A DNA stretch of 16,435 bases from a virus (lineage: Duplodnaviria; Heunggongvirae; Uroviricota; Caudoviricetes): positions 1 through 16,435 of IMG/VR virus record IMGVR_UViG_2690315742_000009. The stretch is one strand, 5' to 3'. Below the pieces are notes generated by a model that searched no databases, was not told where the DNA came from, and was given only the letters and a program-made list of their open reading frames with translations. Both the position numbers and the translations under genes were made by a program. Positions 1,120 to 14,746 of the stretch are shown piece after piece (within the stretch, counting starts at the first letter, position 1; the number at the start of each line of letters is the position of its first letter).

Positions 1120-1357
1120 GAGTTAAAATCTCCTTCAGTGCATCATCATCGCCAGTATGAATTTCCGGCGCAATTCCCGTTTCACCAGGCCCAACAAATA
1201 CTGCTCGGCGATCTATCAGCCAACGCCCACGAATTTTTTGTGGCCTTGGAACGATGTATCCTAGTTTTCCGTATTTCACCAGGGTAGTGTTTGTTATTGG
1301 GAGACTGAACCGTTTTGGTTTCCACTCGTCGAGCGTTATCAGGTACTGTTCGCTCAT
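1088..1357 (-). CDS. Excisionase-like small protein (DUF1233-type putative Xis)
   Basis: 89 aa from ATG at 1355-1357 with GGAG 8 nt upstream; the track's longer start is a GTG three codons earlier. Position directly upstream of and overlapping int is the classic xis position. Family assignment is from memory. Confidence 0.6.
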   Translation of the reverse strand: MSEQYLITLDEWKPKRFSLPITNTTLVKYGKLGYIVPRPQKIRGRWLIDRRAVFVGPGETGIAPEIHTGDDDALKEILTHVTEATKKQH

Positions 1358-1418
1358 GGCTATCACTCCGGAACGCGCCAGTTGCAGAATATCAACGACA
1401 ACTGGCGACGGTTGAACA

Positions 1419-3860
1419 TTAAAAATCAGCCTGACTCGGGATCAGTTTTTGCCAGATAACTGAAACGTATTTTGCCTGGTAACGAGCGTCATCAAGTGCA
1501 TTATGGCGCTCACCTTCGAATGGAATAGCCGTTCTGGCATCGAAGTCTATGGCTTTCCCCAGCTCAACGATTGTGCGTACATCGCGATCGTTGTAGTAAC
1601 GCCACGGGCAGGGGATCCCCTGCCGTTCGTATGAACGGCGCAAAATCGTGTTGTCGAAGTTGGCTCCATTTCCCCAGACCTGAACAAAAAATTCACCGGA
1701 GTTTTCGTCGATAAATTCCCGCAATTGTAACAGTGCATCATCTAACGGGATTTCATCGGTCATAATGGCAGATTGCGCTTCGCGTGATTGCTTAAGCCAC
1801 CATTTAATGGTGTCCCGATCAATGACTCCGCCAGCAGTTTCCAGATCGATAGTCTTACTAAATTCCGGTCCCATATCTCCGGTTTGCGGATCGAAAAATA
1901 TTGCACCTATTGAGATGATCGGGGCATCAGGATTTTTTCCCATGGTTTCAAGGTCGATCATTAGATGGTCACACGTCCTGCTGGTGGATGTGATTTCGTG
2001 ATGACCGTTCACCTTAATTGAGTGATCTGCCGTCTCGCCAGTTTTATTATCGCTGGCGTGATGCTGATTGCCGCCAGGGTTCTCCTTGTGTGGATGTTCA
2101 GCGCCTTCCATTTCCTCCGGATCATTTTCCTGAACTTCAACCTGATTCTCTTCATCGAATGTTTCCTGGTATGTTGCGTCGCCCATCACCGCGCCACAAT
2201 CAGGGCAGTTGCCGCCACCGCTCTGACCGCAGGCGGTGCAGACTTTTTCCGGTTCCTGTTGCGCTACTGGTTCGGATTGTTTCGTTTCTGGCTCGTTTTG
2301 TAACGCATTTGGGCTGTTTTGTTCCGCTTTTTGGTCGTTCCGTTCCGATTCATGCTGGTTCTGGTTCACAGAATCGCGAGTCTGGATCCCCTTGACCCAT
2401 TTCGGATCATTAGGGTCGCTAATCCCCTCAACAAATTCACCACGCGATACAGCAAGTAACTTATCGGCGTCAGGCTGGCTGATATTGGCTGCCTGCATAA
2501 TTTTGTTTACTTCGTCAGCGGTGACTTTTACTTGGTTAGCGGAACTCACCTGCGACTGAGCATCCAGCGACTGCGCGTTCTGGCCATGTTCAGTTGTATC
2601 CGGTTCCATTGTTTCAGTTGTTGCCTGTTCACCTGCCATTGCGTCAGATGGTTGTGGTTTTTCTTCTTCTGTTTCACGCTCAGTAACCACCTCGCGGTTA
2701 ATTTCTTCCAGGATATCTTTTTCCGGCGTATGCCGGGCAGCTGTGAGAGTTTCCTTGCTGGGGTTCTCGTGATCAGTTTCCGTCAAATAGGCGTTGATAT
2801 ACCCCTGAAGGCGTCCCGGGTAGTGATAAAATTCAGGGTGTGCGCTTCGGATAAGTGCAAAAATAGCGGCGCGGGAATAGTCCAGAATACCCGGGGTTGC
2901 ACGAAGTGCTGCGGACCATTCTTTGAACGGACTTTCTTTGTTCAGGACTACTTCTTTTGCGCGACGATAAACGCTGCCCGGAATTTCATAAATATTAAAA
3001 TCCATCGGAAGTGTGGCTGCTGCAATCTCCACATCCAGTGTGTCGAGGGTGTGTACTAAATTCGGATTGCGATCGGTTTTGTTCCCACCGCCAGCATTAG
3101 CACCGGAAGCCGTGCGGGTGATGCGTGAAACACGATTTCCTTTCATCCACTCTTTTGTCAGCAGACCCCGATCAGTGTAGTCAGCGTCCAGGTATGCTTC
3201 GAAAAAAGCAGTTATTAGTCCCAGGTCTGAATTACCAGGATTAGGGAAAACTTTGTCAGTGTCACGAACCAGTTTGTGGAGGTCGCGAATCTCCAGCGAG
3301 TCGAGCAGACTGGTTTTATGCGAAATAGCCAGGGCAGTAACAGCCGGTAGTTCTTCAGCCCGTGCAATGTGTAATGCCTGGAGTTCGTCGCGTGAAACGT
3401 GCGTTACTGGTTTTTCGCTGCCGTGTTGAGCAAGCCAACGAATGGGCAGTTCCTGACCGGAGACAGGCAGAAGCATGCTCTCCTCAATCTCAGTCATGTC
3501 TTCGCCGTTGATGTTGGTATTGTCAGTGCTGGCTGGTTTGTCCTGAACAGAGGGGGAAGGGCCGATAAATGTCATTGTGATGCCATCTTTCCCGCCTTTT
3601 TCATAGCGGTTGCAGAATTCAGTATCAAACACGCCTTCTGGCGGAAGGTCGTCAACAACGGGCAAATTGACGCGGACGGGTTTTTTAAAGTCGTCTTCAT
3701 CATAATCGTTGTCATCCATTGCGGTAATGCAGCGGGAGATTGCAACAGATAATTTTTTTGCTGTAGTCCAGTAAAAACCACCTTTAATTCCCAGGCGTTT
3801 TCTTACTTTGTCATTTTTTGCTTCGCAATATAGTGCAAATTCTTCTTTATCAGTGCTCAT
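1419..3860 (-). CDS. Exonuclease: RecE-like N-terminal region fused to a DEDDh (DnaQ-like) 3'-5' exonuclease domain
   Basis: 813-aa ORF, ATG at 3858-3860 with GAGG upstream. Residues about 110-600 closely resemble the non-catalytic N-terminal part of Rac RecE as I recall it (e.g. [71 protein letters not shown]). The C-terminal 200 aa carry DEDDh motifs (DLETMG; [12 protein letters not shown]; [13 protein letters not shown]) in place of the RecE nuclease domain. A long acidic low-complexity linker lies between. Confidence 0.8.
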
Positions 3861-3953
3861 TATTGGTAAACCTCATCACAGATTTAAGGGTGAACAAATC
3901 TCTGCCATTGCTGACATATAAGAATGAAACTGGATATTTATTACGGTGCTGTT

Positions 3954-4145
3954 TTAAAATCCTGCCGGGATTTCGTTATTATCCTGGTGAATAACTTTAT
4001 CGACCGGATAACAGTTGCCTGGAATTTTCTGTTCGGTTGCTGCTGCCATACATTCCTGCATTGTTCTGTGAACACTGACTGCAATATCAACTGGCTCTCC
4101 GGAAACAAGAAAAACCGTCAGAATAAGTGCAAATACTGGATTCAT
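3954..4145 (-). CDS. ydfD: YdfD-like small lysis protein (63 aa, N-terminal hydrophobic segment)
   Basis: ATG at 4143-4145 overlaps the dicB stop (ATGA). Protein MNPVFALILTVFLVSGEPVDIAVSVHRTMQECMAAATEQKIPGNCYPVDKVIHQDNNEIPAGF matches my memory of Qin YdfD in length and sequence. TAA at 3954-3956. Confidence 0.7.
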   Translation of the reverse strand: MNPVFALILTVFLVSGEPVDIAVSVHRTMQECMAAATEQKIPGNCYPVDKVIHQDNNEIPAGF

Positions 4146-4330
4146 TGTGCACATCCTTTTGGCATCAGACGTAAACGGGCCAGCATTGAAACAATGCATA
4201 CTTTATTTAATAACTCCCGTTCGTGTTTTCTTTTGTTAATGGCATCTTCAGTAAATACAGGATTACTGATAGTGACACCAATTTCAAAACAACCTTCAGA
4301 CGTATTAACGTTTGGTAATAACGTTTTCAT
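4142..4330 (-). CDS. dicB: Cell division inhibitor DicB (62 aa)
   Basis: ATG at 4328-4330 with GAGGG about 7 nt upstream; the track's GTG at 4435 is an upstream extension. Protein MKTLLPNVNTSEGCFEIGVTISNPVFTEDAINKRKHERELLNKVCIVSMLARLRLMPKGCAQ matches recalled DicB of the Qin dicBF operon. Lies immediately downstream of DicF. Confidence 0.75.
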   Translation of the reverse strand: MKTLLPNVNTSEGCFEIGVTISNPVFTEDAINKRKHERELLNKVCIVSMLARLRLMPKGCAQ

Positions 4331-4503
4331 TATCGCGCCCTCAACAATGAGTTTTGTGATGCGGTGCCTGGTGCCTCCAGGTGACGTTAACCAGTTAACA
4401 ATTAACGCCGGATACAGAGAATCCACCCATAACACTGTTTTTGGTTTTAACTGTTCCGCGTGCGCTTAGCCGCATTCACCGCATCACAAAATTCACTTTA
4501 AAA

Positions 4504-4556
4504 AGGGCGGCAGAGCAGTCACGGAGTAAAACTGATACCGCCAAACGTCACCAGAA
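4504..4556 (-). ncRNA. dicF: DicF small RNA (53 nt)
   Basis: Minus strand reads TTTCTGGTGACGTTTGGCGGTATCAGTTTTACTCCGTGACTGCTCTGCCGCCC followed by TTTT, which matches the 53-nt E. coli DicF sequence as I recall it. Contains a GC-rich terminator stem (GGCGG...CCGCC) and sits between a ydfC-like ORF and dicB as in the Qin operon. Confidence 0.8.
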
Positions 4557-4898
4557 AATTGATAACAGAGGGCGTTGCAGTGGGGTTGTCACTTAAGCGT
4601 ATGGTCAACCTGACAACCCGGTGTCCTCAACGGGGGAAGGAATAACCCCGCCATACTTACCGCCGCGCCATTTCGCGGATTGCCACAACCGGAAGCGCAC
4701 GGTCGACGAAAATTTAACGACAGGCTATCTATGAACCAGCTACCTCGCCGTGCGCTTTCGCGTTATGGTCTGACTTTTCAGGGAAATATCCTTTCAGTAA
4801 ACTGTCAGTGCCGGATGCTCACCCGTGTCCGGCGCACGCACTCCACCTCACCCGTGGAGAACTCCTTAATTACCAACCTTAGCTTCGTTGGTTAGCTA

Positions 4899-5117
4899 TT
4901 AACGCTGGTATGTAATCATTCTGGCAATGCTTAATGCCGCTGCTTTTTCCAGCCTGGTGATATCCTGCTCCAGAGCGGACAGATTTTCAGCCTGCTTAGC
5001 CCTGGCTTCATTGGCCCATTTCAGATCCTGCGCTGCATTAATTTTCTGGCGCATCCACTCATAAAGTTCATCATCGGTATAGTCTGGCGCGATGATGACG
5101 GGTTCTCGTTTCTGCAT
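4899..5117 (-). CDS. Small protein in ydfC position of the dicBF operon (72 aa)
   Basis: ATG at 5115-5117 preceded by a strong SD (AAGGAG, 7-nt spacer). Same length and operon position as Qin YdfC; sequence identity not verified. Confidence 0.6.
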   Translation of the reverse strand: MQKREPVIIAPDYTDDELYEWMRQKINAAQDLKWANEARAKQAENLSALEQDITRLEKAAALSIARMITYQR

Positions 5118-5188
5118 GTCGGCTCCTTGTGGTTAGCGTTGCCTGCTTTTAACCACGTCAGGCGAGGTGGTATCCTCTGAGGGGTCTG

Positions 5189-5545
5189 TTACTCGAGAGG
5201 AAATTGGTTATGAATACAATCAAGTTTTCTTGCCCAGAATGTGGTGGCGAAGTCTTTGACACATCCTTTAAGCCGCAGGGCTCTGACAGTTTCGCGGGAG
5301 CCATCTGCAAAAATTGTGGTCACCTTGTAACTGAAGATGAGTCCTCGCAGTTCGATGACGAAATCGTTGACAATATCTTCGGTGCACTCACCAGAGACTT
5401 TCTGAAATAAAGACGCATACCGCTTAGTTACCGCTCTGATAACTCTTACCTGTCCGGCAATGGCGCTGATGTCAATATAAAGCGCCATTGCTGCTTCTTT
5501 GCCGATCCCGTGATGCCTTCCATTCTGATGTTTGACTTCGCCCAC
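5189..5545 (-). CDS. Hypothetical protein (118 aa from GTG, or 99 aa from ATG at 5488); competing call with the plus-strand ORF 5210..5410
   Basis: Co-directional with the early-left operon. GTG at 5543-5545 preceded by AGAGGA (9 nt). Codon first-position G is about 44 percent in the non-overlapping part 5411-5545. Lies where ydfA/ydfB-type genes would be expected by synteny. It shares exact codon triplets in antisense with the plus-strand zinc-ribbon ORF, so one of the two is probably an artifact. Confidence 0.35.
   Translation of the reverse strand: MGEVKHQNGRHHGIGKEAAMALYIDISAIAGQVRVIRAVTKRYASLFQKVSGECTEDIVNDFVIELRGLIFSYKVTTIFADGSRETVRALRLKGCVKDFATTFWARKLDCIHNQFPLE
5210..5410 (+). CDS. 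Small acidic zinc-ribbon protein (66 aa); competing call with the minus-strand ORF 5189..5545
   Basis: ATG at 5210 with GAGAGG about 10 nt upstream. Two CxxCG knuckles 20 residues apart (CPECGG ... CKNCGH) form a canonical zinc-ribbon signature; acidic C-terminus. Opposite in orientation to the surrounding operon. Confidence 0.4.
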   Translation: MNTIKFSCPECGGEVFDTSFKPQGSDSFAGAICKNCGHLVTEDESSQFDDEIVDNIFGALTRDFLK

Positions 5546-5727
5546 TGAGAAATCCTCTGTTTCCCCTTAACGCCGGGGTAGCGGAACAAAAACCTGCTGC
5601 ATAGTTAAAGTTGAACCCTGCCGTCATGTTCTTACGCCTCGGGCTGGCTACTTAACCCCTGACCACTGCCTGGTAACTCGAAGTATTGCCCTGCATTCTG
5701 TGGGGCGGGGTGGGTTGGTATGTTGTT

Positions 5728-5756
5728 AAGGTAACAAGAGTTACCTTTAGAGTCAA
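5728..5756 (-). promoter_or_regulatory. pL-like early leftward promoter with overlapping repressor operator
   Basis: Minus strand reads TTGACT, 17-nt spacer, TACCTT. An 18-bp perfect palindrome AGGTAACAAGAGTTACCT (plus 5729-5746) overlaps the spacer and -10. Sits just downstream of the repressor gene terminator, facing the dicBF-exo-xis-int operon. Confidence 0.5.
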
Positions 5757-5786
5757 TACAATGTTGCAAAAGGTACATTTGAGGGC

Positions 5787-5811
5787 ATAAAAAACCCGCA
5801 ATGAATGCGGG
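5787..5811 (-). terminator. Rho-independent terminator after the repressor gene
   Basis: Minus strand CCCGCA-TTCAT-TGCGGG followed by TTTTTTAT; 6-bp GC-rich stem immediately after the repressor stop codon (5819-5821). Confidence 0.7.
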
Positions 5812-5818
5812 TTCTGAC

Positions 5819-6493
5819 TCAGTCTAAGTATTGATGTATTTGTGAAACTTTACCTTTAATGGTGTAACCACCATTCAGTTCGATGGGTTTGTAAAGCGGA
5901 TTCAGTGACAACAGATAGATGTTTGGTCCGTCAATCGCAACTTTTTTTAGTGTTACGTTTGGCGTTCCTTCCAATTGGATTAAGATTATTTTTCCCACCA
6001 GTTCTCTAATGTTACTTGAGCATGGTGTGATCAGCACGGTAGATCCGTCGGGGATGGTTGGGAGGCCGTTAGAGTTTGTCATCGCATCTCCCTCAACATG
6101 CAATAAAAAAGAGTTTTCAGCGGTTTTTGTCATGACATCAACCCAATTCTTAATACCAGGAATCTCGGTTACTGGACAACTCATATCCCAATAACCAGCC
6201 TGTTCCCACGTTAAAACGGGCAACCGGGCGATGTTGTCACTAATGTAAGGGTACTGATTCAGACGCAGATCATCGGTTTTATCGTGACAGTCCTTTCCAT
6301 AAAGAATCCATTCAGGAGATTTGGAAAGCAATTTTGACAGTAGATGCAAATTCTCACCGTCAGGTTTTGAAGAGCCATTTTCCCATTTTGTTACGGATAC
6401 ACGAGATATGCCGATTGCTTTCGCAACCTGCTGTTGGGTTAATCCAACGTCTTTTCGACGATTCCGAATACGTTCGCTGATAGTGTTTTTCAT
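5819..6493 (-). CDS. cI-like prophage repressor (N-terminal XRE-type HTH plus C-terminal S24/LexA-like peptidase domain)
   Basis: HTH signature LTQQQVAKAIGISRVSVTKWENG near the N-terminus and a LexA/cI-like C-terminal domain. Preferred start is ATG at 6491-6493 (224 aa, no SD, operator abutting, suggesting a leaderless transcript as for lambda cI). Alternative ATG at 6536; the track's TTG at 6592 would overlap the cro-like start. Confidence 0.85.
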   Translation of the reverse strand: MKNTISERIRNRRKDVGLTQQQVAKAIGISRVSVTKWENGSSKPDGENLHLLSKLLSKSPEWILYGKDCHDKTDDLRLNQYPYISDNIARLPVLTWEQAGYWDMSCPVTEIPGIKNWVDVMTKTAENSFLLHVEGDAMTNSNGLPTIPDGSTVLITPCSSNIRELVGKIILIQLEGTPNVTLKKVAIDGPNIYLLSLNPLYKPIELNGGYTIKGKVSQIHQYLD

Positions 6494-6509
6494 GTAACCA
6501 ATGTTACTA
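6492..6509. promoter_or_regulatory. Operator-like palindrome (ATGTAAC-CAAT-GTTACTA) at the repressor start; PRM-like region
   Basis: Third copy of GTAAC-N4-GTTAC, directly abutting the repressor ATG. A TAACAT -10-like hexamer lies 7 nt upstream of the ATG on the minus strand. Confidence 0.45.
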
Positions 6510-6528
6510 CCAAGTGATGTTGCTATGG

Positions 6529-6558
6529 TTGACATTGCTATGTAACTATTGTTACCCT
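6529..6558 (+). promoter_or_regulatory. pR-like early rightward promoter with overlapping operator
   Basis: TTGACA (6529-6534), 18-nt spacer, TACCCT (6553-6558). Palindrome GTAACTATTGTTAC (6542-6555) overlaps the spacer and -10, mirroring the pL-like architecture. SD AGGAG and the cro-like ATG follow at 6585. Confidence 0.5.
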
Positions 6559-6584
6559 CCCGCTCGAAATAACAGGAGAGTTTT

Positions 6585-6797
6585 ATGTTCAAAGATGATG
6601 TTCTGCGCTATTTCAAAAAAAAGCGACTAGTAGCTGAGGCTCTTGGAATTTCACATGTGGCTGTTGTGCGGTGGAAAGCAGTTATTCCCAAACTTCGCGC
6701 AATGGAACTGGATGAAATTACTAACGGTGAATTGAAATACAACCCAGAACTTTACAAGAAGCAGGATAGCACCTCGAACGAAGGAAAGAATGATTAA
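6585..6797 (+). CDS. Cro/DicC-like small HTH regulator (70 aa)
   Basis: Divergent from the repressor; AGGAG 7 nt upstream of ATG. Sequence pattern (LRYF...LVAEALGISHVAVVRWKA...RAMELDEITNGELKYNPELY) resembles DicC/YdaS-type Cro-like proteins from memory. Stop overlaps the next gene's start by 1 nt. Confidence 0.75.
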   Translation: MFKDDVLRYFKKKRLVAEALGISHVAVVRWKAVIPKLRAMELDEITNGELKYNPELYKKQDSTSNEGKND

Positions 6798-7222
6798 TGA
6801 AAATCAAGCATGAACACATCCGCATGGCGATGAATGCCTGGGCGCATCCGGACGGCGAAAAAGTACCGGCTGCGAAAATTACCAAAGCGTATTTCGAGCT
6901 GGGAATGACGTTCCCGGAACTGTATGACGACAGCCATCCGGAAGCCCTGGCTCGCAATACTCAGAAAATATTCCGCTGGGTGGAGAAAGACACCCCTGAT
7001 GCTGTTGAAAAAATTCAGGCGTTGTTACCAGCGATCGAAAAAGCAATGCCACCTCTGCTGGTGGCCCGAATGCGCAGCCACAGTTCAGCCTATTTTCGGG
7101 AGCTGGTGGAGATGCGGGAACGACTGGTGAGAGACGCTGATGATTTTGTCGCAGTGGCGATCGCTGGTTTCAATCAGATGAATCGTGGTGGTCCGGCGGG
7201 AAATGCCGTGGTGGTGCATTGA
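6797..7222 (+). CDS. cII-position regulator (YdaT-like, 141 aa)
   Basis: Translationally coupled to the cro-like gene (TAATG overlap). Sits between cro-like and replication genes, i.e. the cII position. N-terminus MKIKHEHI resembles Rac YdaT as I recall it; unverified. Confidence 0.55.
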   Translation: MKIKHEHIRMAMNAWAHPDGEKVPAAKITKAYFELGMTFPELYDDSHPEALARNTQKIFRWVEKDTPDAVEKIQALLPAIEKAMPPLLVARMRSHSSAYFRELVEMRERLVRDADDFVAVAIAGFNQMNRGGPAGNAVVVH

Positions 7223-7243
7223 TAACGTGTTCTGGGGGAGGGG

Positions 7244-8209
7244 ATGAAGCTCCTTTTTGCTGAACGTCCGCTGGTTATAAACACGCAGCTGGCGATGAAA
7301 ATTGGTCTGAACGAAGCCATCGTGTTGCAGCAGCTGCATTACTGGTTGAGAGATACCAGTTCCGGCATGGAATGTGATGGTGTTCGCTGGATTTATAACA
7401 CAACAGAACAATGGCTGGAACAGTTCCCGTTCTGGTCAGAGTCAACGTTAAAACGCGCATTTGCAAGTCTGAAAACGCTGGGGCTTTTGCGTTGCGAAAA
7501 GCTCAACAAATCAAAGCGTGATATGACTAATTTTTACACGATTAATTACGAGAGCGAGCTTTTAGATGGTGGCAAAGTGAACGAATCCATCAGGTCAAAA
7601 TGCGCCGCTCCATCAGGTCAAAATGACACGATGGAAGAGGTCAAAATGGCACGCTCCATTGGTTCAAAACGACCCAATGTCATCGGGTCAAAATGGCCTG
7701 ATGATCTTACAGAGAATACAACAGAGATTACTACAGAGAATAAAAAAACTTCTCGTCCGGAAGCTTCGCAACCGGACATGCAGACGGCTGAACAGGATTT
7801 TTTAAACCGACACCCTGACGCGGTTGTGTTCAGTGCGAAAAAACGCCAGTGGGGCAGCCAGGAAGATTTAGCGTGTGCGCAGTGGATCTGGGGACGAATC
7901 GTGAGTCTTTACGAGCAGGCTGCCAGCGATGATGGCGAAATCATGCGACCGAAAGAACCAAACTGGACTGCATGGGCCAATGATGTGCGCACAATGCGGA
8001 TGCTGGATGGCAGAACTCACAGACAAATTTGCGAAATGTTTGGTCGGGTACAGCGGGATCCATTCTGGGTAAAAAACGTCATGAGCCCGTCAAAGCTTCG
8101 CGAAAAATGGGATGAGCTGGTTATTCGTCTGGGGCGTTCGCCTGTACAGCGTTGCGTGAATCACATTTCTGAACCGGACACCGAAATTCCGCCGGGGTTC
8201 AGGGGGTAA
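7244..8209 (+). CDS. Replication initiator (lambda O-like replisome organizer) with internal origin
   Basis: 321-aa ORF directly upstream of the DnaC-like loader. Five 23-bp-spaced iterons and an AT-rich tract lie inside the coding region, as ori-lambda lies within O. GGAGG sits only about 2 nt from the ATG, so the start is uncertain. Confidence 0.7.
   Translation: MKLLFAERPLVINTQLAMKIGLNEAIVLQQLHYWLRDTSSGMECDGVRWIYNTTEQWLEQFPFWSESTLKRAFASLKTLGLLRCEKLNKSKRDMTNFYTINYESELLDGGKVNESIRSKCAAPSGQNDTMEEVKMARSIGSKRPNVIGSKWPDDLTENTTEITTENKKTSRPEASQPDMQTAEQDFLNRHPDAVVFSAKKRQWGSQEDLACAQWIWGRIVSLYEQAASDDGEIMRPKEPNWTAWANDVRTMRMLDGRTHRQICEMFGRVQRDPFWVKNVMSPSKLREKWDELVIRLGRSPVQRCVNHISEPDTEIPPGFRG
7587..7695. 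repeat. Iteron array: 5 direct repeats of about (CCATCA)GGTCAAAATG with exact 23-bp periodicity; putative replication origin
   Basis: TCAAAA cores at 7596, 7619, 7642, 7665 and 7688. First two copies are identical 16-mers (CCATCAGGTCAAAATG); the others are degenerate (GAGGTCAAAATG, TTGGTTCAAAACG, CGGGTCAAAATG). Confidence 0.7.
7709..7748. repeat. AT-rich tract with three phased ACAGAGA(A/T)TA repeats ending in A7; putative DNA-unwinding element of the origin
   Basis: TACAGAGAATA, ACAGAGATTA and TACAGAGAATAAAAAAA spaced about 11-12 bp apart (helical phasing) immediately downstream of the iterons. Confidence 0.55.
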
Positions 8210-8215
8210 CGGGCT

Positions 8216-8962
8216 ATGAAAAATATTGCGGCAGATGGTGTTCTTGAGCGTATCCGTAAGCTGGCCCCGCAGCATGTAACTGCGGCGTACCGGACAGTGG
8301 ACGAGTGGCGGGAGTGGCAGCTTGCAGAAGGGCGAAAACGTAGCGAGGAGATCAACCGCCAGAATCGCCAGTTACGGGTGGAAAAATTCCTGAATCGTTC
8401 CGGTATCCAGCCGTTGCACCAGAAATGTTCGTTTGCGAATTACCAGGTGCAGAACGACGGACAGCGTCATGCACTCAGCCAGGCGAAGTCCATTGCAGGC
8501 GAACTGATAACCGGGTGCACGAATTTTGTGTTCAGCGGTAAGCCGGGTACCGGAAAGAATCATCTGGCAGCAGCCATTGGCAACCATCTTCTGGCGAAAG
8601 GTCGCAGCGTGATTGTGGTGACGGTGGCGGATGTGATGCTGGCGTTACACGGCAACTACGACAACAAAAACTCAGGCGAAAAATTTTTGCAGGGGTTGTG
8701 TGAAGTTGACCTGCTTATCCTGGATGAAATCGGTATGCAGCGGGATACGCGTAACGAACAGGTCACACTGAACCAGATAGTCGATCGCAGAACGGCCTCG
8801 ATGCACAGCGTCGGGATGCTGACAAACCTGAACCACGCAGCGATGAATACGCTGCTTGGCGAACGCGTGATGGACCGCATGACCATGAACGGTGGTCGCT
8901 GGGTGAATTTTAACTGGGAGAGCTGGCGCCCGAATGTTGGTCAGCCAGGTATTGAAAAGTAA
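8216..8962 (+). CDS. DnaC-like replicative helicase loader (IstB-like AAA+ ATPase)
   Basis: Walker [16 protein letters not shown] and Walker [10 protein letters not shown]; 248 aa; immediately downstream of the O-like gene. Confidence 0.85.
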
Positions 8963-8982
8963 TTTTTACCGGGAGGAAATTT

Positions 8983-9726
8983 ATGGAGACTGTTTTTGAC
9001 GCACTGAAAGCGATGGGAAAAGCCACGTCGGTAGAGCTGGCTGCGCGACTTGATATCAGTCGTGAAGAAGTACTGAACGAGCTGTGGGAACTGAAAAAGG
9101 CTGGTTTTGTTGATAAAAGCGCGTACACCTGGCGTGTGGCTGATAACAACGTTCAGCAGGAACAGCCAGCGCCAGAAGAACAGCCGGAAGAAACCACCAC
9201 GGCGACAGTAGCGAAAATCTCAGAGTGCGATTTAACCGCGACGATTGAACAACGCGGACCACAAACGGCGGATGAACTGGCTACGCTGTTCGGTACAACA
9301 TCCCGCAAAGTGGCTTCAACGCTGGCAATGGCAATCAGCAAAGGTCGTCTGATTCGTGTTAATCAGAACGGTAAATTTCGTTACTGCATGCCGGGCGAGA
9401 ATTTACCAGCAGAGCCGAAAGCGGCATCGGTAGCGGAAACTGATGGTAAAGCCTTTCCTCAGCCTGCATGTGTTGCGTTACCAGTACAGGAAGCTGCAAC
9501 ACAGGAAGATATTAAAACAGAAACTGTGGCGGACATTGTGCAGCCGCTTGAGAAGCGAGTGGATAATCTGGTTCTGCCATCGCTGCGACAGGCAAACCGC
9601 GAACTGCGTCGGGCGAAAAGTGATATCAGGAAATGGGAGCGAGTCTGTGCCGCGCTGCGGGAGCTGAATAAATATCGCGATATTGTCGCCCAGCTTTGCC
9701 AGGAGGCAACCAGTGAGAAAAATTAA
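8983..9726 (+). CDS. Hypothetical protein with two winged-helix-like segments (DUF1627-like, from memory)
   Basis: GGGAGG 7 nt upstream of ATG. Acidic, Q/E/P-rich linker between two HTH-like stretches ([28 protein letters not shown]; [32 protein letters not shown]). Confidence 0.5.
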
Positions 9727-10282
9727 TTATCAGGCGCTACGTGAGATAGCAAAACAGGCAACACAAGGCGAATGGGTCGCATTTATTTCGCCGGGCAAAT
9801 ACGGCACGTACGCCGTGCACACGCCAGGAGATAATCATCACGGAGATATTGTCGACTGGCCTGGATTCGACGGACAGAAAAACGCAGAGAACAACGCTCG
9901 TTATATCGCAGCTTTCAACCCTGAAGTAGTGCAGGCGCTGCTGGATGAACGGGAAGCCCAAAGCAAACGCATTGCAGAACTGGAAGCTAATTTTGCGACG
10001 CTGGCAGTGGAGAATGTGGGGTTAAATAAATTCATTAAGGATGATTGCTTTATTTATACAAGCGATGACATCAGCCCACGCGATGCAAATGGATTCAAGC
10101 CTGAAACGCCAGCTACTGACGCTTTCCTGGTTGATATACAGGCGGTGGCGTTTAACGAGCTTCGCGCGGCGTTTGTCAGGCATGCAAAAGTTGCAGAACT
10201 GGATGATGCCGATACTGTAACGCTTAAGGAAGTGATGGATGCGCTGCTGCATTGTGTAGAACAGCTTCGCGCTCCAGAATAA
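9713..10282 (+). CDS. Ead/Ea22-like protein (189 aa from GTG)
   Basis: AGGAGG (9701-9706) 6 nt upstream of GTG at 9713; the track's TTG at 9683 is less likely. N-terminal motif [19 protein letters not shown] resembles the Ead/Ea22 family from memory. Overlaps the previous gene by 14 nt. Confidence 0.6.
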
Positions 10283-10377
10283 ATAAATTTATCACTGTAA
10301 ATAAAATTTAATCCTTAACCGGAGGGATTTCTACACCCTCAGAACAGCAGGAGGCCACCCGAAAGGGCGGTAGTGAA

Positions 10378-10560
10378 ATGCGAAAGTTCAAAGTAATTAT
10401 TGAAACTGGAATAGCTGGTGGAGATTTTGAGGATGTATTCGAAGTGGACGATGACGCAACACCTGATGAAATTCATGACGAAGCAAAAGAAATTTTCTTT
10501 AACTACTGCAATTACTCATATCACGAAATAAAAGACGAAGAGGAAGAACAAAATGGCTGA
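10378..10560 (+). CDS. Small highly acidic hypothetical protein (60 aa, 19 D/E against 5 K/R)
   Basis: ATG at 10378. An AGGAGG lies 24 nt upstream but is brought closer by a predicted GAAA-loop hairpin between SD and ATG. Stop overlaps the next ORF's start. Confidence 0.45.
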   Translation: MRKFKVIIETGIAGGDFEDVFEVDDDATPDEIHDEAKEIFFNYCNYSYHEIKDEEEEQNG

Positions 10561-10729
10561 TTTTGGTTCAACTAAATATAACGCCAGTTTTGAAGAATGG
10601 CATGAACTGTTAATGGACTATGCAGAGTTACGCGGTGGAAGTGCCGCCGATGCTGAAGCATGGCGTGATGACTATGAAGCAGGAAAAACTCCGGTCGAAG
10701 CATATTGTGATGAGTGGGGCTATGAATGA
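10553..10729 (+). CDS. Small acidic hypothetical protein (58 aa, 15 D/E against 4 K/R)
   Basis: Not in the supplied track (below 60 aa). ATG at 10553 with GAGGAAG upstream, overlapping the previous stop. Its TGA overlaps the next gene's ATG (ATGA). Sequence MADFGSTKYNASFEEWHELLMDYAELRGGSAADAEAWRDDYEAGKTPVEAYCDEWGYE. Confidence 0.45.
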   Translation: MADFGSTKYNASFEEWHELLMDYAELRGGSAADAEAWRDDYEAGKTPVEAYCDEWGYE

Positions 10730-11241
10730 GCGAGATTAATTATCAGGAAGGGCATGAAACGGCAGGGCAGGCAAAACCAGTTGCATGGCGATATCGCTAC
10801 GTGAAAAAAGGCGTTACGGACTTTCAGGAGAAGATGTGGGTTGGTGACTGGAAATATGTACCGACAAAAGAGGATTGCAACGACAGGCCGAGCTATGAGA
10901 TTCAGGCATTATTCACTACCCCGCCAGTCCCGGTGATATCAGAAGGACTGGTTAAAGCCGTGCGCTTTTATGAACAGGTAAAGCGTGAAAATCCGCCAGC
11001 CGAAACAGGAGCATGGAAAGACGCTGTTGACTGGGTGCTCAAAGAGGCCTGCTGTGCTGTCATTCTGGGTAAAGCCGACAATCCACTAGCATCCAGTAAT
11101 CAGGTTGGCGAATTAACAATGTGGGTTAAACGACTGGTCAGTCAACTGAAAAAAGCTAATCCAGACTGCAAATTACCGGAGATGGCGATGCATTACCTGA
11201 AACGAAATGGACTGATAAGCGTGGAGGATGTTTTACGATGA
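10726..11241 (+). CDS. Hypothetical protein (171 aa) with Ead/Ea22-like N-terminal motif
   Basis: ATG coupled to the upstream ORF (ATGA). N-terminus SEINYQEGHETAGQAKPVAW parallels the N-terminus of the 9713..10282 protein. Confidence 0.6.
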   Translation: MSEINYQEGHETAGQAKPVAWRYRYVKKGVTDFQEKMWVGDWKYVPTKEDCNDRPSYEIQALFTTPPVPVISEGLVKAVRFYEQVKRENPPAETGAWKDAVDWVLKEACCAVILGKADNPLASSNQVGELTMWVKRLVSQLKKANPDCKLPEMAMHYLKRNGLISVEDVLR

Positions 11242-11321
11242 CCTGGCCTGAGGCATTTACAACGGCAGGAATTGCAATGGCGGCGGCGCTGGTGGTGTAT
11301 TCGATTTGCCGCTGGGGATAA
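11238..11321 (+). CDS. Possible 27-aa hydrophobic peptide (MTWPEAFTTAGIAMAAALVVYSICRWG)
   Basis: ATG overlaps the stop of the 171-aa gene (ATGA); single predicted transmembrane-like stretch. Very short, so speculative. Confidence 0.25.
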   Translation: MTWPEAFTTAGIAMAAALVVYSICRWG

Positions 11322-11328
11322 AAACGGT

Positions 11329-11356
11329 TTGCGGGAAAAGGAGAGTTAAGTAGAAT
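11329..11356 (+). promoter_or_regulatory. Candidate promoter of the hok mRNA
   Basis: TTGCGG, 16-nt spacer, TAGAAT. The predicted start (about 11361-11365) coincides with a 5' element (GCGGGTGCTTGAGG, 11361-11374) that is complementary to the mRNA 3' end. Confidence 0.4.
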
Positions 11357-11475
11357 TGCAGCGGGTGCTTGAGGCTATCTGTCTCAGGCATGAACACCAA
11401 AAGGCAGATAGAGAAAAGCCCCAGTTAACATTACGCGTCCTGCAAGACGCTTAACATTAATCTGAGGCCATATCT

Positions 11476-11535
11476 ATGCGACACATAGAGATTAGCCTCT
11501 TACGGACCGAAAGGTCAAGGAGAAGCAGGCTATGA
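11476..11535 (+). CDS. Short upstream reading frame coupled to hok (mok-like, 19 codons)
   Basis: ATG at 11476; its TGA overlaps the hok ATG (ATGA). Analogous to mok-dependent translational coupling in hok/sok loci, but much shorter than classical mok. Confidence 0.3.
   Translation: MRHIEISLLRTERSRRSRL
11489..11518 (-). promoter_or_regulatory. Candidate promoter for a Sok-like antisense RNA
   Basis: Minus strand TTGACC (plus 11513-11518), 18-nt spacer, TAATCT (plus 11489-11494). Predicted antisense start near 11482, reading across the start of the upstream coupled frame. Confidence 0.4.
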
Positions 11536-11687
11536 AGCAGCAAAAGGCGATGTTAATCGCCCTGATCGTCATCTGTTTAACCGTCATAGTGACGGCACTG
11601 GTAACGAGGAAAGACCTCTGCGAGGTACGAATCCGAACCGGCCAGACGGAGGTCGCTGTCTTCACAGCTTACGAACCTGAGGAGTAA
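11532..11687 (+). CDS. hokD: Hok/Gef-family type I toxin (51 aa)
   Basis: AAGGAG SD. Protein MKQQKAMLIALIVICLTVIVTALVTRKDLCEVRIRTGQTEVAVFTAYEPEE has a single transmembrane helix plus a conserved Cys-containing periplasmic tail, and matches my memory of HokD (RelF). Confidence 0.85.
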   Translation: MKQQKAMLIALIVICLTVIVTALVTRKDLCEVRIRTGQTEVAVFTAYEPEE

Positions 11688-11755
11688 GAGACCAGGCGGG
11701 GGAGAAATCCCTCGCCACCTCTGATGTGTCAGGCATCCTCAACGCACCCGCACGT

Positions 11756-11783
11756 AACCCGCTTCGGCGGGTTTTGTTTTTTC
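11756..11783 (+). terminator. Rho-independent terminator of the hok transcript
   Basis: AACCCGC-TTCG-GCGGGTT (UUCG tetraloop, 7-bp stem) followed by TTGTTTTTT. Confidence 0.75.
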
Positions 11784-11854
11784 CTGGCATTCTGGTTTAC
11801 AATTCGCACGCCAGCCTGAACAACTGGCACCTGCTGCGCCAGCAGAGACAACCG

Positions 11855-12127
11855 ATGGCGCACAATACCAAATATCACAATTCTGATACCGACCTTGCCA
11901 GCAGGTGCGGGCTGTGTTCTCACGCATTCAAATATGACTGGTATCAGCACGATCCCTGCACTGAAGAACAGGCCGAATGGCTGATTCATAACTACCGCAG
12001 ACGTGGGTATGAGTTTAAGAAAGCCCTTAGCCTCGACTACCGTCACTGGATAATCTACGTCAGGCTCCCTTATTCCGAACGCCCGCCGCGTCCGTCCCGC
12101 ACATTCCAGCAACGCATCTGGAGGTAA
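11855..12127 (+). CDS. Small Cys/His-containing protein in the position of Qin rem (90 aa)
   Basis: ATG at 11855. The track's upstream start at 11726 would run through the hok terminator hairpin, so I truncated it. Contains CGLCSHAFKYDWYQHDPC. GGAGG near its 3' end serves the next gene. Confidence 0.5.
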   Translation: MAHNTKYHNSDTDLASRCGLCSHAFKYDWYQHDPCTEEQAEWLIHNYRRRGYEFKKALSLDYRHWIIYVRLPYSERPPRPSRTFQQRIWR

Positions 12128-12128
12128 T

Positions 12129-13184
12129 GTGAGGGTATTAGTGACTCCTGAAATTGCTCACCGTCTGGGGATTGTACTTTTCAGGCCCGGTCCTGATGCG
12201 ATGCCTTTGTTTATGCAGGGGCGTGTACTGGTCGAGCCGGAACCAAAAAGCATGCGCGGTCTGCCGTCCGGGGTCGTTCCTGCCGTTCGCCAGCCGCTGG
12301 CGGAAGACAAATCTCTGCTGCCATTTTTCAGCGATGAGCGGGTGATTCGTGCTGCCGGCGGCGCTGGTGCACTGTCTGACTGGCTACTGCGTCATGTCAA
12401 ATCCTGCCAGTGGCCTCATGGTGACTACCATCACAGTGAAACCGTCATACATCGTTACGGTACCGGCGCGATGGTGTTGTGCTGGCACTGCGACAACCAG
12501 CTGCGTGACCAGACCTCCGAATCACTGGAACATCTGGCTCAACAAAACCTGGCAGCATGGATGATTGACGTCATCGGTCACGCAGTAAGCGGTACGCAGG
12601 AGCGTGAATTATCTCTGGCTGAATTATCCTGGTGGGCAGTCCGCAATCAGGTGGCGGACGCGCTACCGGAAGCGGTATTACGTCGTTCGCTGGGGTTGCG
12701 TGCGGAAAAAATCCGCTCAATGTACCGTGAAAGCGACATCGTACCGGGAGAGCAGACCGCCACCAGCATACTGAAGCAGCGCACAAAAAATCTTGCGCCG
12801 CTGCCTCACGCCCACCAGCAAAACCCGCCACAGGAAAAGACGGTGGTCAGCATTGCTGTTGATCCGGAGTCACCGGCTCAGTATCTCCAGCGCCAGAAAC
12901 CACAACGGGAAGAGATGCCTGTATACACGCGCTGGGTAAAAACGCAGAAATGCATGACGTGCGGTAATCAGGCAGATGATCCGCATCACATCATTGGTCA
13001 TGGACTGGGAGGGATGGGAACAAAGGCTGATGATTTGTTTGTTATTCCGCTGTGCCGTAAATGTCATAACGAACTGCACGCCGGGGTAAAAGATTTTGAA
13101 GAAAAACACGGCAGCCAGCTGTTGTTGCTGATTCGTTTTTTAATGCACGCGAGAAATTCGGGTGTCCTGAAGTGGAAAGCATGA
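12129..13184 (+). CDS. DUF968-type protein with C-terminal HNH-like Cys/His motif (YdfU-like)
   Basis: GTG at 12129 with GGAGG 5 nt upstream. C-terminus CMTCGNQADDPHHIIGHGLGG...CRKCHNELH resembles an HNH/zinc-finger nuclease motif. Upstream of rusA, in the nin-region equivalent. Confidence 0.75.
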   Translation: MRVLVTPEIAHRLGIVLFRPGPDAMPLFMQGRVLVEPEPKSMRGLPSGVVPAVRQPLAEDKSLLPFFSDERVIRAAGGAGALSDWLLRHVKSCQWPHGDYHHSETVIHRYGTGAMVLCWHCDNQLRDQTSESLEHLAQQNLAAWMIDVIGHAVSGTQERELSLAELSWWAVRNQVADALPEAVLRRSLGLRAEKIRSMYRESDIVPGEQTATSILKQRTKNLAPLPHAHQQNPPQEKTVVSIAVDPESPAQYLQRQKPQREEMPVYTRWVKTQKCMTCGNQADDPHHIIGHGLGGMGTKADDLFVIPLCRKCHNELHAGVKDFEEKHGSQLLLLIRFLMHARNSGVLKWKA

Positions 13185-13550
13185 ATGACTGAACGCATAG
13201 AATTTGTTTTGCCTTACCCGCCGACGGTGAATACCTACTGGCGACGTCATGGCAATACGTATTTCATCTCGGAGGCCGGAAAGCGTTATCGCCATGATGT
13301 GGCGCTAATTGTTCGCCAGCAGCGGTTGAAATTAAACCTGTCCGGAAGGCTGACGATAAAGATTATTGCAGAGCCACCGGATAAGCGCCGTCGTGACCTG
13401 GACAATATCCTGAAAGCACCACTGGATGCGCTGACGCATGCCGGACTACTCATAGACGACGAGCAGTTTGATGAAATCAATATTGTGCGCGGTCAGCTCG
13501 TTCCTGGTGGGCGGCTGGGGATAAAAATCACAGAACTGGAGTGCGCATGA
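13185..13550 (+). CDS. rusA: RusA Holliday junction resolvase
   Basis: 121 aa. Conserved RusA signature (PPDKRRRDLDNILKAPLDALTHAGLLIDDEQF ... GGRLGIKITE) aligns with E. coli RusA as I recall it. ATG overlaps the upstream stop. Confidence 0.9.
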   Translation: MTERIEFVLPYPPTVNTYWRRHGNTYFISEAGKRYRHDVALIVRQQRLKLNLSGRLTIKIIAEPPDKRRRDLDNILKAPLDALTHAGLLIDDEQFDEINIVRGQLVPGGRLGIKITELECA

Positions 13551-14236
13551 ATAACCAGTATTTACAGTTTGTGCGTGAGCAGCTCATTATCGCCACCGCT
13601 GATTTGAGTGGGGCAACAAAAGGTCAGCTTGAAGCCTGGCAGGAGAATGCCATGTTTGATACAGGGCGTTACAGGCGTAAAAAAATCCGGTACCGAGATG
13701 AAGTGACTGGAAGAATGATAACGCGGGATAGTCCACCGATACCGGGAAAACAATCACTGGCGAAAGGCTCATCAATTGCTCTGGTAAGTCAGGTTGAGTT
13801 TTCGACATCATCATGGCGACGGGCAGTTCTGTCTCTTGAAGAACATCATAAAGCCTGGTTGTTGTGGTGTTACAGCGGGAGTATTTGTTGGGAATATCAG
13901 ATCGCGATAACACAGTGGGCGTGGAATGAATTTAATACTCAATCCGGTACCAGAAAAATTGCAGGGAAAACGCAGGAACGCCTGAAAAAATTAATCTGGC
14001 TGGCGGCGCAGGCATTAAAAGCAGAACTTTTTGGTGGGGAAGGTTATGAATACCAGGAGCTGGCATTACTGGCGGGAGTGACAACTAAAAACTGGTCCAA
14101 AACATTTACTCGTCACTGGGTTGCAATGAAACACATTTTTCACCGACTTGATAGTGAGGCTTTATTGTTTGTAATGAGAACACGTTCAAAACAAAAGGCG
14201 GCATTTTCAAAGCAAAGTGTTGCAAAAGTAGATTGA
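13547..14236 (+). CDS. Putative late-gene antiterminator (Q-like) by position; function unverified
   Basis: 229 aa from ATG at 13547 (GGAG 7 nt upstream, ATGA overlap with the rusA stop). Sits between rusA and a promoter/terminator pair followed by tRNAs and lysis genes, the canonical Q position. Confidence 0.45.
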   Translation: MNNQYLQFVREQLIIATADLSGATKGQLEAWQENAMFDTGRYRRKKIRYRDEVTGRMITRDSPPIPGKQSLAKGSSIALVSQVEFSTSSWRRAVLSLEEHHKAWLLWCYSGSICWEYQIAITQWAWNEFNTQSGTRKIAGKTQERLKKLIWLAAQALKAELFGGEGYEYQELALLAGVTTKNWSKTFTRHWVAMKHIFHRLDSEALLFVMRTRSKQKAAFSKQSVAKVD

Positions 14237-14248
14237 AAGGCATATATT
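14220..14248 (+). promoter_or_regulatory. Candidate late promoter (pR'-like) at the 3' end of the Q-like gene
   Basis: TTGCAA (14220-14225), 17-nt spacer, TATATT (14243-14248); the predicted transcript runs about 70-80 nt into the terminator at 14303-14326. Confidence 0.45.
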
Positions 14249-14302
14249 TCATGCAAATCTGATATTTTGCCGATTTTGTACGTGATGGCAAAAGCAAACA
14301 AA

Positions 14303-14326
14303 ACCCGCCCACAAGCGGGTTTTTTG
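14303..14326 (+). terminator. Rho-independent terminator (tR'-like)
   Basis: ACCCGC-CCACAA-GCGGGT followed by TTTTTTG. Confidence 0.7.
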
Positions 14327-14392
14327 TGCCACTTATCTCGGATAGACATGGTGAATGCGCTGGTGGAGGAGATAAGGGTGATTTTTGAATGC

Positions 14393-14421
14393 TTGCAACA
14401 TTGATTTCGTAACGTTATTAT
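14393..14421 (+). promoter_or_regulatory. Strong sigma70-type promoter of the tRNA array
   Basis: TTGCAA (14393-14398), 17-nt spacer, TATTAT (14416-14421), followed by a GC-rich discriminator (CCTGCGCCC) and the first tRNA 9 nt downstream. Confidence 0.55.
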
Positions 14422-14430
14422 CCTGCGCCC

Positions 14431-14506: not shown

Positions 14507-14507
14507 G

Positions 14508-14584: not shown

Positions 14585-14586
14585 GT

Positions 14587-14662
<76 letters not shown>

Positions 14663-14665
14663 TAT

Positions 14666-14740
<75 letters not shown>

Positions 14741-14746
14741 GTTAGA

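Follow-up and report, generated by a model that had tools for sequence, protein, structure and literature searches.

A probable lambda-type replication origin in the linker-coding part of a prophage initiator gene

The C-terminal half of the O protein of phage lambda recruits the helicase loader. Dimers of O on inverted-repeat iterons open the 40-bp A+T region next to these, and the origin is activated by transcription (PMC5043065). The Stx phages 933W and P27 have a lambda-type origin with six iterons inside O, in which the distal iterons are bound weakly yet are needed, and binding of O to single-stranded DNA of the AT-rich region has been described for these origins (PMC7466680). Plasmid iterons, which are located outside the rep gene, are direct repeats and bind monomers (PMC5043065). 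Here we analyzed a 16,435-nucleotide (nt) stretch of Caudoviricetes DNA (IMG/VR record IMGVR_UViG_2690315742_000009, positions 1 to 16,435; referred to below as the window), which is 100% identical to a chromosomal prophage of Escherichia coli TUM9757. Its initiator gene contains a phased array of iterons, a stretch of low duplex stability made of three 12-nt repeats, and an inverted repeat. We conclude that these elements very probably form the replication origin of a lambdoid E. coli prophage, situated where the initiator gene encodes the linker, and that this origin is built, and probably used, like ori-lambda.

The likeness to ori-lambda is one of layout. In both, palindromic iterons spaced 20 to 24 nt apart, each taken to bind an initiator dimer, precede a purine-rich stretch of low stability, about 40 bp long, after which comes an inverted repeat, and the origin is within the gene part that links a DNA-binding N-domain to a loader-recruiting C-domain. 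The C-terminal halves of the two proteins are homologous; residues 147 to 294 of the window initiator align with residues 135 to 270 of lambda O at 36% identity over 148 residues (BLASTP, E 6e-28). This alignment begins at the last iteron, and therefore the origin is at about the same protein position as the annotated iterons of lambda. The last iteron and the AT-rich part match approximately the place of lambda's annotated iterons 3 and 4 and A+T region. The first-pass annotation, which was made from the letters alone, had likened the locus to ori-lambda inside the initiator gene, and our comparison bears this out. The parts, however, differ. Lambda has four iterons with the core TCCCTCAAAACGAGGGA, whereas the window has five or six with the core GGTCAAAATGACC. 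The N-domain of the window initiator is an unclassified winged helix without detectable similarity to the lambda O family PF04492, its partner is a DnaC-type AAA+ loader and not a lambda P protein, and, unlike lambda O, it ends in a DnaT-like tail. The putative unwinding region of the window is a precise 12-nt repeat, of which lambda has only a degenerate echo (CAAAAGA twice, GAAAAGA, and CAGAGAA). The window origin is a further lambda-type origin, from a family with an unclassified DNA-binding domain.

Five 23-nt iterons, 74 to 100% identical to the reference copy of the repeat finder, follow one another at spacings of 23, 23, 23, and 24 nt. The five copies reported by the first-pass annotation were thus found again, but their spacing is not exactly 23 bp throughout. 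The iteron consensus, CATCnGGTCA-AAA-TGaCCnGATG, is an imperfect palindrome. The exact 10-mer GGTCAAAATG occurs four times, always in the iteron stretch and nowhere else in the window. None of 300 dinucleotide-preserving shuffles of positions 7531 to 7900 reached five copies, and the longest run phased at 22 to 24 nt was two in the shuffles versus five observed. The iteron core is translated as IRSKC, SGQND, EVKMA, IGSKR, and IGSKW, that is, in three reading frames. The 23-nt period is not a multiple of 3, and therefore the repeat belongs to the DNA and not to the peptide. The degenerate sixth copy, iteron 0, is a good copy (GAGGTCAAAGTGA) in mEp460_4F5 and in the Klebsiella and Citrobacter relatives. 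It parallels the weakly bound distal iterons of 933W and P27, although these two phages, unlike the window, use lambda-type O, P, and iterons. Iteron 0 and the inverted repeat at 7755 to 7777 are additions to the first-pass annotation. Each iteron is the putative binding site for a dimer of the N-domain.

We found evidence of selection on the DNA itself in a set of 78 close relatives, which comprise 52 distinct sequences that are 90 to 98% identical. In the N-domain, 6 of 107, 5 of 107, and 54 of 107 columns were polymorphic at codon positions 1, 2, and 3, respectively; the corresponding counts were 14 of 103, 14 of 103, and 58 of 104 in the C-domain. The distribution was much more even in iterons 1 to 5 (8 of 39, 10 of 38, and 10 of 39) and in the 12-mer stretch (0 of 15, 2 of 16, and 3 of 16). 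Third-position variation is lowered in the origin (13/55 versus 112/211 in the domains, p = 1.2e-4), and variation at positions 1 and 2 is raised (20/108 versus 39/420, p = 0.01). This is the signature of a weakly constrained peptide over constrained DNA. The superposition of DNA and protein constraints that had been read from the single sequence is therefore seen in the polymorphism of the relatives as well.

One genome per species was scanned, which gave 80 loci encoding the N-domain at 45 to 99% identity. Their hosts are Enterobacterales, Pseudomonas, Acinetobacter, Psychrobacter, Comamonas, Bacillus, Staphylococcus, lactobacilli, clostridia, and actinobacteria. Most of these loci have an array spaced at 22 to 24 nt that begins a few dozen nt or less after the N-domain ends; loci with a phased array include those of Enterobacterales, Pseudomonas, Acinetobacter, Comamonas, Staphylococcus, Limosilactobacillus, Bacillus, and Nocardioides. 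The iteron cores are palindromes of the form NNxCA-www-TGxNN, and they are lineage specific (GGTCAAAATGACC, GGGCAAATTGCCC, GGACAATTTGTCC, GATCAAAATGATC, and TATCAAAATGATA). Absence of the repeats from relatives that retain the initiator had been named as the observation that would speak against an origin. The repeats are, however, retained in relatives whose N-domain identity is as low as about 50%, and they change together with the protein, so that this check does not refute an origin.

The covariation centers on a single residue. Loci were classed by the third base of the iteron half-site, and mutual information was computed with every N-domain column. Residue 67, which is predicted to lie in the recognition helix, gave 1.48 bits, the highest value of all N-domain columns. 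Ser67 occurs with GGTCA (third base T) in 13 of 13 genome loci. Asp67 occurs with G(G/T)GCA (third base G) in 13 of 13, and also in one TnGCA locus (L131). Lys67 occurs with GGACA (third base A) in five of five. There are single cases of Arg with CGACA (L150) and of His with GGCCA (L159), and Met, Pro, and Ala at this residue go with (T/G)ATCA. The same pairings are found in different backbones. Near-identical Pantoea-type N-domains have either Lys with GGACA or Asp with GGGCA, and the distant "LLINE"-type N-domains repeat the Ser-T, Lys-A, and Asp-G pairings. An automated repeat of the test on IMG/VR loci, which were retrieved by DNA pattern and not by initiator protein, gave Ser-T in 25 of 25, Asp-G in 9 of 9, and Lys-A in 2 of 2 loci. 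These three pairings are without exception in both data sets. The second-best column, residue 111, is the translated iteron itself. The codon of residue 67, however, is more than 120 nt upstream of the iterons, and the covariation is therefore not an artifact of overlap. This covariation, the strongest non-experimental evidence in the analysis, suggests that the N-domain binds the iterons. It also indicates, indirectly and from sequence, that the specificity of each initiator matches its own iterons. A residue-67 rule of this kind (Ser-T, Asp-G, Lys/Arg-A) would make origin specificity, and the incompatibility of co-resident prophages, predictable from sequence.

Downstream of the iterons, copies of ACAGAGA begin at 7709, 7721, and 7733, which gives a period of exactly 12 nt, or four codons; the units (7709 to 7744) encode TENT, TEIT, and TENK. 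The first-pass annotation had described three ACAGAGA(A/T)TA repeats about 11 bp apart that end in A7, and had called the element helically phased. The three units and the A7 (7742 to 7748) are present, but the period of 12 nt is out of phase with the 10.5-bp helix, and the helical phasing has to be given up. Positions 7704 to 7748 are 73% A+T and form the least stable 45-mer of the gene. Across the whole window, only 17 of 16,390 windows are less stable (lowest 0.1%). This low duplex stability fits an unwinding element, and we suggest that 7709 to 7748 is the DNA unwinding element of the origin.

The 12-nt units are conserved well beyond the close relatives, in initiator genes of Proteobacteria, Firmicutes, and Actinobacteria phages, with the consensus ACAGAGAnTACW. 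In the aligned mEp460 variants, a Klebsiella phage, and Stx2_14040, the sequence GATCTTACAGAGAATACAACAGAGA.TACT.CAGAGA.TA is invariant save for the three dotted positions, even though the iterons of Stx2_14040 are unrelated. The initiator of Stx2_14040, an Stx phage, has its own 23-nt-phased iterons, and its N-domain is no more than remotely related (hhalign probability 43%, E 2.5e-4). Two to five phased units are present in 59 of the 80 genome loci and invariably read as T-E-x-T; they are in frame in all 58 intact loci that carry them. We counted codons in 139 units from 48 distinct arrays, with the same genes elsewhere as the background. Threonine is encoded by ACA 104 times and never by ACC, ACG, or ACT (background ACA, 22%), and glutamate by GAG 120 times and never by GAA (background, 48%). 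The third codon is AnT (ATT 44, AAT 41, ACT 36, and AGT 4 versus ATC 0, AAC 1, and ACC 1), and the fourth is AC(A/T) in 98 cases versus ACG in 1 and ACC in 0. The synonymous bases are thus fixed while the amino-acid-changing middle base is free, which indicates selection at the DNA level. Because the frame is constant within the initiator genes, the frame by itself does not exclude a peptide repeat; the codon usage and a plasmid cassette described below do.

Some observations on the units stand apart. Their number varies among close relatives by whole units, with four in L011 and L088, five in L097, and three in the window; L011 carries one extra ACAGAGAATACA. In a Shigella flexneri chromosome (L154), the initiator is frameshifted (70 codons are open from the matched start), the 12-mers are out of frame with a stop, and the iterons and 12-mers are intact. 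This locus looks like a decaying prophage that keeps its origin DNA. Our literature search found no relevant description of the 12-nt motif or of such origins, although sequences printed in figures are not searchable.

A stem of at least 5 bp within 60 nt after the last 12-mer is present in 50 of 62 distinct relatives versus 33% of shuffled controls. The inverted repeats of many relatives form one family, GTCnGGTTGC-nnn-GCAACCnGAC. The inverted repeat of the window corresponds to the palindrome downstream of the A+T-rich region of ori-lambda, where lambda has GTCAGAG...CTCTGAC. The GATC where the last iteron meets the first 12-mer is invariant in the aligned enterobacterial relatives and absent in the Pantoea, Pseudomonas, and Firmicute versions. 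A Klebsiella phage that has this site encodes a Dam methylase directly after its initiator.

The 12-nt motif is also found in other phages and on plasmids. An exact-pattern scan of IMG/VR for two units gave at least 120 stretches, and in most of the 80 IMG/VR loci examined the motif is at about residues 135 to 200 of open reading frames (ORFs) of 250 to 370 amino acids (aa). The N-domains of these loci are of several types with a common "hhhxQhxYW" signature, as read by eye. With a 51-nt BLAST query, we found the motif at 84 to 92% identity inside initiator genes of phages of Acinetobacter, Staphylococcus, Bacillus, Erwinia, Burkholderia, Vibrio, and Xanthomonas. Lineage-specific repeats directly precede three or four 12-nt units in Staphylococcus phage 37, Acinetobacter phage IME-AB2, and Bacillus phage PM1. 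The same query matches 8.4-kb plasmids of Bacillus velezensis and Bacillus amyloliquefaciens (including hits H110 to H116). In pBSG3 (NC_014104, L291), the cassette at about 735 to 885 consists of iterons (CCTACAGGGAAAGA), three ACAGAGATTACT units, and an inverted repeat (GCGCAAAAACACGCGC). It lies upstream of the plasmid's own rep gene, in DNA without an entry in the plasmid gene table, a table known to have gaps. Among the listed ORFs of at least 40 aa, a single one overlaps the cassette, and it has the 12-mers in another frame (LQRLLQRL). The alignment of the cassette with the origin in the PM1 initiator gene begins at the first iteron and runs until about 20 nt beyond the inverted repeat; outside these limits the homology ceases. 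A cassette kept as a unit without a protein marks the limits of the functional unit. These Bacillus plasmid cassettes may be decoys that titrate the phage initiator, or they may give the plasmid a route to replication or transduction during infection. The pBSG3-type plasmids are small rolling-circle Bacillus plasmids.

The 12-mer stretch is exactly where initiator genes of relatives cease to resemble one another, and the motif coincides with a junction of module exchange. In Klebsiella phage ST147-VIM1phi7.2 (L003, 1944 to 2858), the N-half and the origin up to the 12-mers are common with the window, and the C-domain is Phg_2220_C. In Stx2_14040 (L004, 1054 to 1947), only the 40-nt 12-mer stretch is common with the window. 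The C-domains of 12-mer-bearing initiators are lambda-O-like, Phg_2220_C, DnaB_2, the DnaT DNA-binding domain, or unclassified. The hhalign comparison of the window initiator C-domain with the DnaT DNA-binding domain, Phg_2220_C, and DnaB_2 C-domains gave no similarity, and the idea that one C-domain fold reads the 12-mers was left without sequence support. The 12-mers are thus independent of the C-domain family, which points to either the shared winged-helix initiators or a universal host protein as their reader. We are evenly divided on a broader proposal, namely, that the 12-nt units are a sequence-specific origin element, conserved at the DNA level beside lineage-specific iterons and several N- and C-domain types in Proteobacteria, Firmicutes, and Actinobacteria, movable as a plasmid cassette, and implying a common reader. 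If this proposal is correct, the reader would be a universal host replication protein or a surface shared by the winged-helix initiators that acts on the opened strand, and the element would have a role like that of DnaA-trios. The motif marks origins in many temperate phages of unrelated hosts and could serve as a search key for them.

Two other kinds of origin offer a comparison for such repeats. The unwinding regions with DnaA-trios and chromosomal 13-mers also have short, phased, sequence-specific repeats beside the double-strand sites of an initiator, which is a possible analogy. However, the sequence differs, and the period is 12 nt and not 3 nt or 13 nt. Exact DnaA boxes (TTWTNCACA) are absent from the window, and one-mismatch matches number 40 versus 35 expected, with none clustered at the origin. 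A DnaA-dependent origin was ruled out because DnaA boxes are at chance level. Gene 38 of phage SPP1, which encodes the replisome organizer G38P and within which oriL lies, has purine-rich repeats in the middle of the gene for an origin-binding protein, as in the window, and genes for a loader and a helicase after it. Unlike the window, SPP1 encodes its own DnaB-type helicase. The SPP1 repeats (L290, about 2939 to 2995) are an 11-nt GACACGAAAAA present twice, flanked by ACAGAGAAAC and GACACAGAAAC, which is similar in style to the 12-nt motif but distinct from it. No ACAGAGAnTAC units above chance were found in gene 38, and therefore the motif is not tied to that validated origin. Replication dependent on SPP1 oriL and reconstituted in vitro is treated in PMC5737612.

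Like the plasmid iteron origins of F, R6K, RK2, and pPS10, the window has an initiator-binding repeat array that adjoins an A+T-rich unwinding element. Unlike plasmid iterons, its repeats are palindromic and lie within the initiator gene. The initiator has no Pfam match to Rep_3 plasmid Rep proteins, and a Rep_3-type plasmid origin was rejected on these grounds.

The AlphaFold model of the initiator, built with a 24-row alignment, contains two folded domains. The N-domain has helices at residues 54 to 60 and 66 to 78 and a beta wing at residues 82 to 85 and 97 to 100, which is the helix-helix-wing order of a winged helix. Residues 109 to 178 (nt 7568 to 7777), between the two domains, have a predicted local distance difference test score (pLDDT) of about 30 and are predicted to be disordered. 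This linker coincides with the iterons, 12-mers, and inverted repeat at the DNA level; the placement of the repeats in an inter-domain linker, also proposed in the first-pass annotation, is consistent with the model. The initiator matched no Pfam family, even at an E value of 10, whereas lambda O scored 5.7e-36 on PF04492 in the same search. Alignment of the N-domain with that of lambda O gave no similarity (hhalign probability 0.04%). The name "O-like" is therefore apt for the C-terminal half and the architecture of the protein but not for its N-domain, and the analogy with ori-lambda rests on architecture and not on homology of the DNA-binding part. A Foldseek search of the full model against the PDB returned only generic winged-helix regulators (best E 0.05), and for this reason we claim no more than the fold class for the N-domain. 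Foldseek of the C-domain-only model against the PDB returned nothing (best E 1.0).

The tail of the initiator is nearly identical to the last 20 residues of the host primosomal protein DnaT (SEPDxxIPPGFRG), and the rest of the protein is without likeness to DnaT. This tail, residues 301 to 321, gave the sole matches in a PDB sequence search of the initiator, and NCBIfam likewise matched the protein nowhere else. We rejected the initiator as a DnaT protein because only the last 20 residues match and the NCBIfam score is 16.8 versus a cut-off of 201. The tail accounts for the RAST-type label "Primosomal protein I" in mEp460 records. Its presence in a phage initiator suggests docking on the same partner as DnaT; the preprimosome paper states no role for the extreme C-terminal tail of DnaT. 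In E. coli TUM9757, the RefSeq name of the initiator is "phage O protein family."

We propose the following mechanism. Dimers of the N-domain would bind the five or six palindromic iterons (7565 to 7703), with residue 67 reading the third base of each half-site (Ser67 with GGTCA). On supercoiled DNA that is transcribed from the early rightward promoter, the nucleoprotein complex may open the 12-mers and the A7 (7709 to 7748), and the inverted repeat may bound the opened region. The C-half of the initiator, with its homology to the lambda O C-domain and its DnaT-like tail, would bring in host DnaB via the phage DnaC-like loader. Host DnaC would serve instead in relatives without a loader gene.

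Several points weigh against this reading of the locus. With a mean pLDDT of 62, the structural model of the initiator has moderate quality, and the folds that it matched are generic. Membership of the N-domain in the lambda O family (PF04492, Phage_rep_O) was rejected, given the lack of a Pfam match and the null hhalign result. The half-site classes of the genome-locus covariation test were curated by hand, in contrast to the automated classes of the IMG/VR repeat. A simple scan found no promoter-like sites in 6400 to 9000, and the proposed role of transcription is therefore purely an analogy with lambda. In general, the support for binding, unwinding, and autonomous replication in this family is computational. 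Finally, the prophage may be defective, in which case the origin would be intact yet unused.

The iteron array might instead be only an autoregulatory operator, with the origin elsewhere. Plasmid Rep proteins are known to repress their own genes by binding to iterons, and the residue-67 covariation speaks for binding by the protein and not for its purpose. However, the iterons are always directly followed by the least stable stretch and an inverted repeat, which a transcriptional roadblock would not need, and the same three-part cassette is present on Bacillus plasmids without a gene to regulate. Its layout and protein position also match those of ori-lambda, which is experimentally proven. 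We consider a mere operator very unlikely, although autoregulation may be an added function of the array. There is even less to be said for the repeats as a by-product of a low-complexity, TTEN-type linker peptide without a function in the DNA. The iterons run through three frames with a 23-nt period, the 12-mers have fixed synonymous sites and a free amino-acid-changing site (139 units, 48 arrays), and the pBSG3 ORF reads the 12-mers in a different frame. The constant T-E-x-T reading of the units in all 58 intact loci and the predicted disorder of the linker would fit such a peptide, which we nevertheless regard as hardly credible.

A further alternative concerns the 12-nt repeat, which might be mainly a shared patch of homology, that is, a recombination linker for swapping N-terminal, origin-specific modules and C-terminal, loader-specific modules. 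This would explain why the similarity between relatives breaks at the 12-mers in the Klebsiella and Stx phages and why at least four C-domain types are found among 12-mer-bearing initiators. It would not explain the fixed place of the units beside the iterons or their retention in the plasmid cassette. In addition, positions 3, 5, and 7 are invariant and position 8 is free across phyla without a chance of direct exchange (Staphylococcus, Nocardioides, and Escherichia). We therefore judge this alternative improbable; functional conservation is more likely the cause, and use of the 12-mers as a recombination junction its result. Phased repeat arrays bound by helix-turn-helix proteins also form the centromeres of plasmids and phages, and the array could in principle be a partition (centromere-like) or packaging site. 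Yet the presumed binding protein has a lambda O C-domain and adjoins a DnaC-like loader, a Pfam scan of the early-region proteins found no ParA-like or ParB-like gene, and annotated relatives are named replication initiators. A partition or packaging site is accordingly a most improbable reading. We return to the replication origin as the preferred one. As one more lambdoid replicon, it is of local value, in that it annotates a gene family labeled "hypothetical protein" in most records; the added value is in the one-residue recognition rule and the conserved 12-nt motif.

The initiator gene is part of a lambdoid early region with genes for a CI-like repressor, Cro, a cII/YdaT-like protein, the initiator, and a DnaC-like loader, as assigned with Pfam, PHROG, and NCBIfam (Table 1). 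Among complete E. coli genomes, 47 have a similar module, with coverage of 80% or more of a 2.5-kb query. The DnaC-like loader is the probable partner of the initiator. Its gene also matched the NCBIfam DnaC model PRK07952 (E 9e-94), under the curated cut-off of that model. A tblastn search of 83 related loci (L001, L002, L003, and L006 to L085), with about 860 nt of downstream flank per locus, detected a DnaC-like loader gene in 23. In mEp460 (ev081 and 4F5), no DnaC-like gene adjoins the initiator gene, which is followed by LygF in mEp460_ev081 and by a 162-aa unknown in mEp460_4F5; in the Klebsiella phage, the Dam methylase gene is at this place. Relatives without a loader gene must therefore use the host loader, and the same initiator and origin seem to work with a phage or a host loader.

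Table 1. Positions of the origin elements, initiator domains, and neighboring genes in the window
Feature	Position	Strand	Basis or remark
RecE-like gene	1419-3860	minus	
CI-like repressor gene	5819-6592	minus	
Cro gene	6585-6797		
cII/YdaT-like gene	6797-7222		
Initiator gene, 321 aa, "O-like"	7244-8209	+	ORF list; PHROG 391 "replication initiation O-like," E 1e-95
Winged-helix N-domain, about aa 10-108	7271-7567	+	AlphaFold, pLDDT 74-89
Predicted recognition helix, aa 66-78	7439-7477	+	AlphaFold
Ser67 codon	7442-7444	+	Second residue of predicted recognition helix (FPFWSE-S-TLKR)
Iteron 0, degenerate (core TGGCAAAGTGAAC), in 23-nt register	7565-7587	+	Sequence reading
Iterons 1-5	7588-7610, 7611-7633, 7634-7656, 7657-7679, 7681-7703	+	Repeat finder; imperfect palindromes around GGTCAAAATGACC
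GATC (Dam site)	7703-7706		Junction of last iteron and first 12-mer
Three tandem 12-nt units (ACAGAGAATACA, ACAGAGATTACT, ACAGAGAATAAA) running into A7 (7742-7748)	7709-7748	+	Sequence reading
Inverted repeat GTCCGG-AAGCTTCGCAA-CCGGAC, 11-nt spacer	7755-7777		Sequence reading; stem survey of relatives
Helical C-domain, about aa 181-297	7784-8134	+	AlphaFold; BLASTP to lambda O
DnaT-like C-terminal tail, 21 residues (VQRCVNHISEPDTEIPPGFRG)	8144-8206	+	NCBIfam DnaT model positions 160-179, E 0.004; PDB chains 2ru8, 6aep, 9zbt
DnaC-like AAA+ helicase-loader gene	8216-8962	+	Pfam IstB_IS21/Bac_DnaA; NCBIfam PRK12377, E 3e-146

A scan for RNA families gave no match. Some metagenome bins among the related loci have odd taxon labels. 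Bins labeled Veillonella, Bacillota, and Collinsella carry an E. coli-type N-domain at 96 to 97% identity, and a bin labeled Micrarchaeota has a bacterial-type initiator with GGACA iterons (L088, L089, L136, and L160). These four cases are probably binning contamination, and the taxon labels of such bins are therefore unfit as an argument about host range. The RecE-like gene of the window encodes an 813-aa protein with an exonuclease VIII (RecE) segment at residues 57 to 189 and a C-terminal Rv2179c-like 3'-5' exoribonuclease domain at residues 632 to 803.

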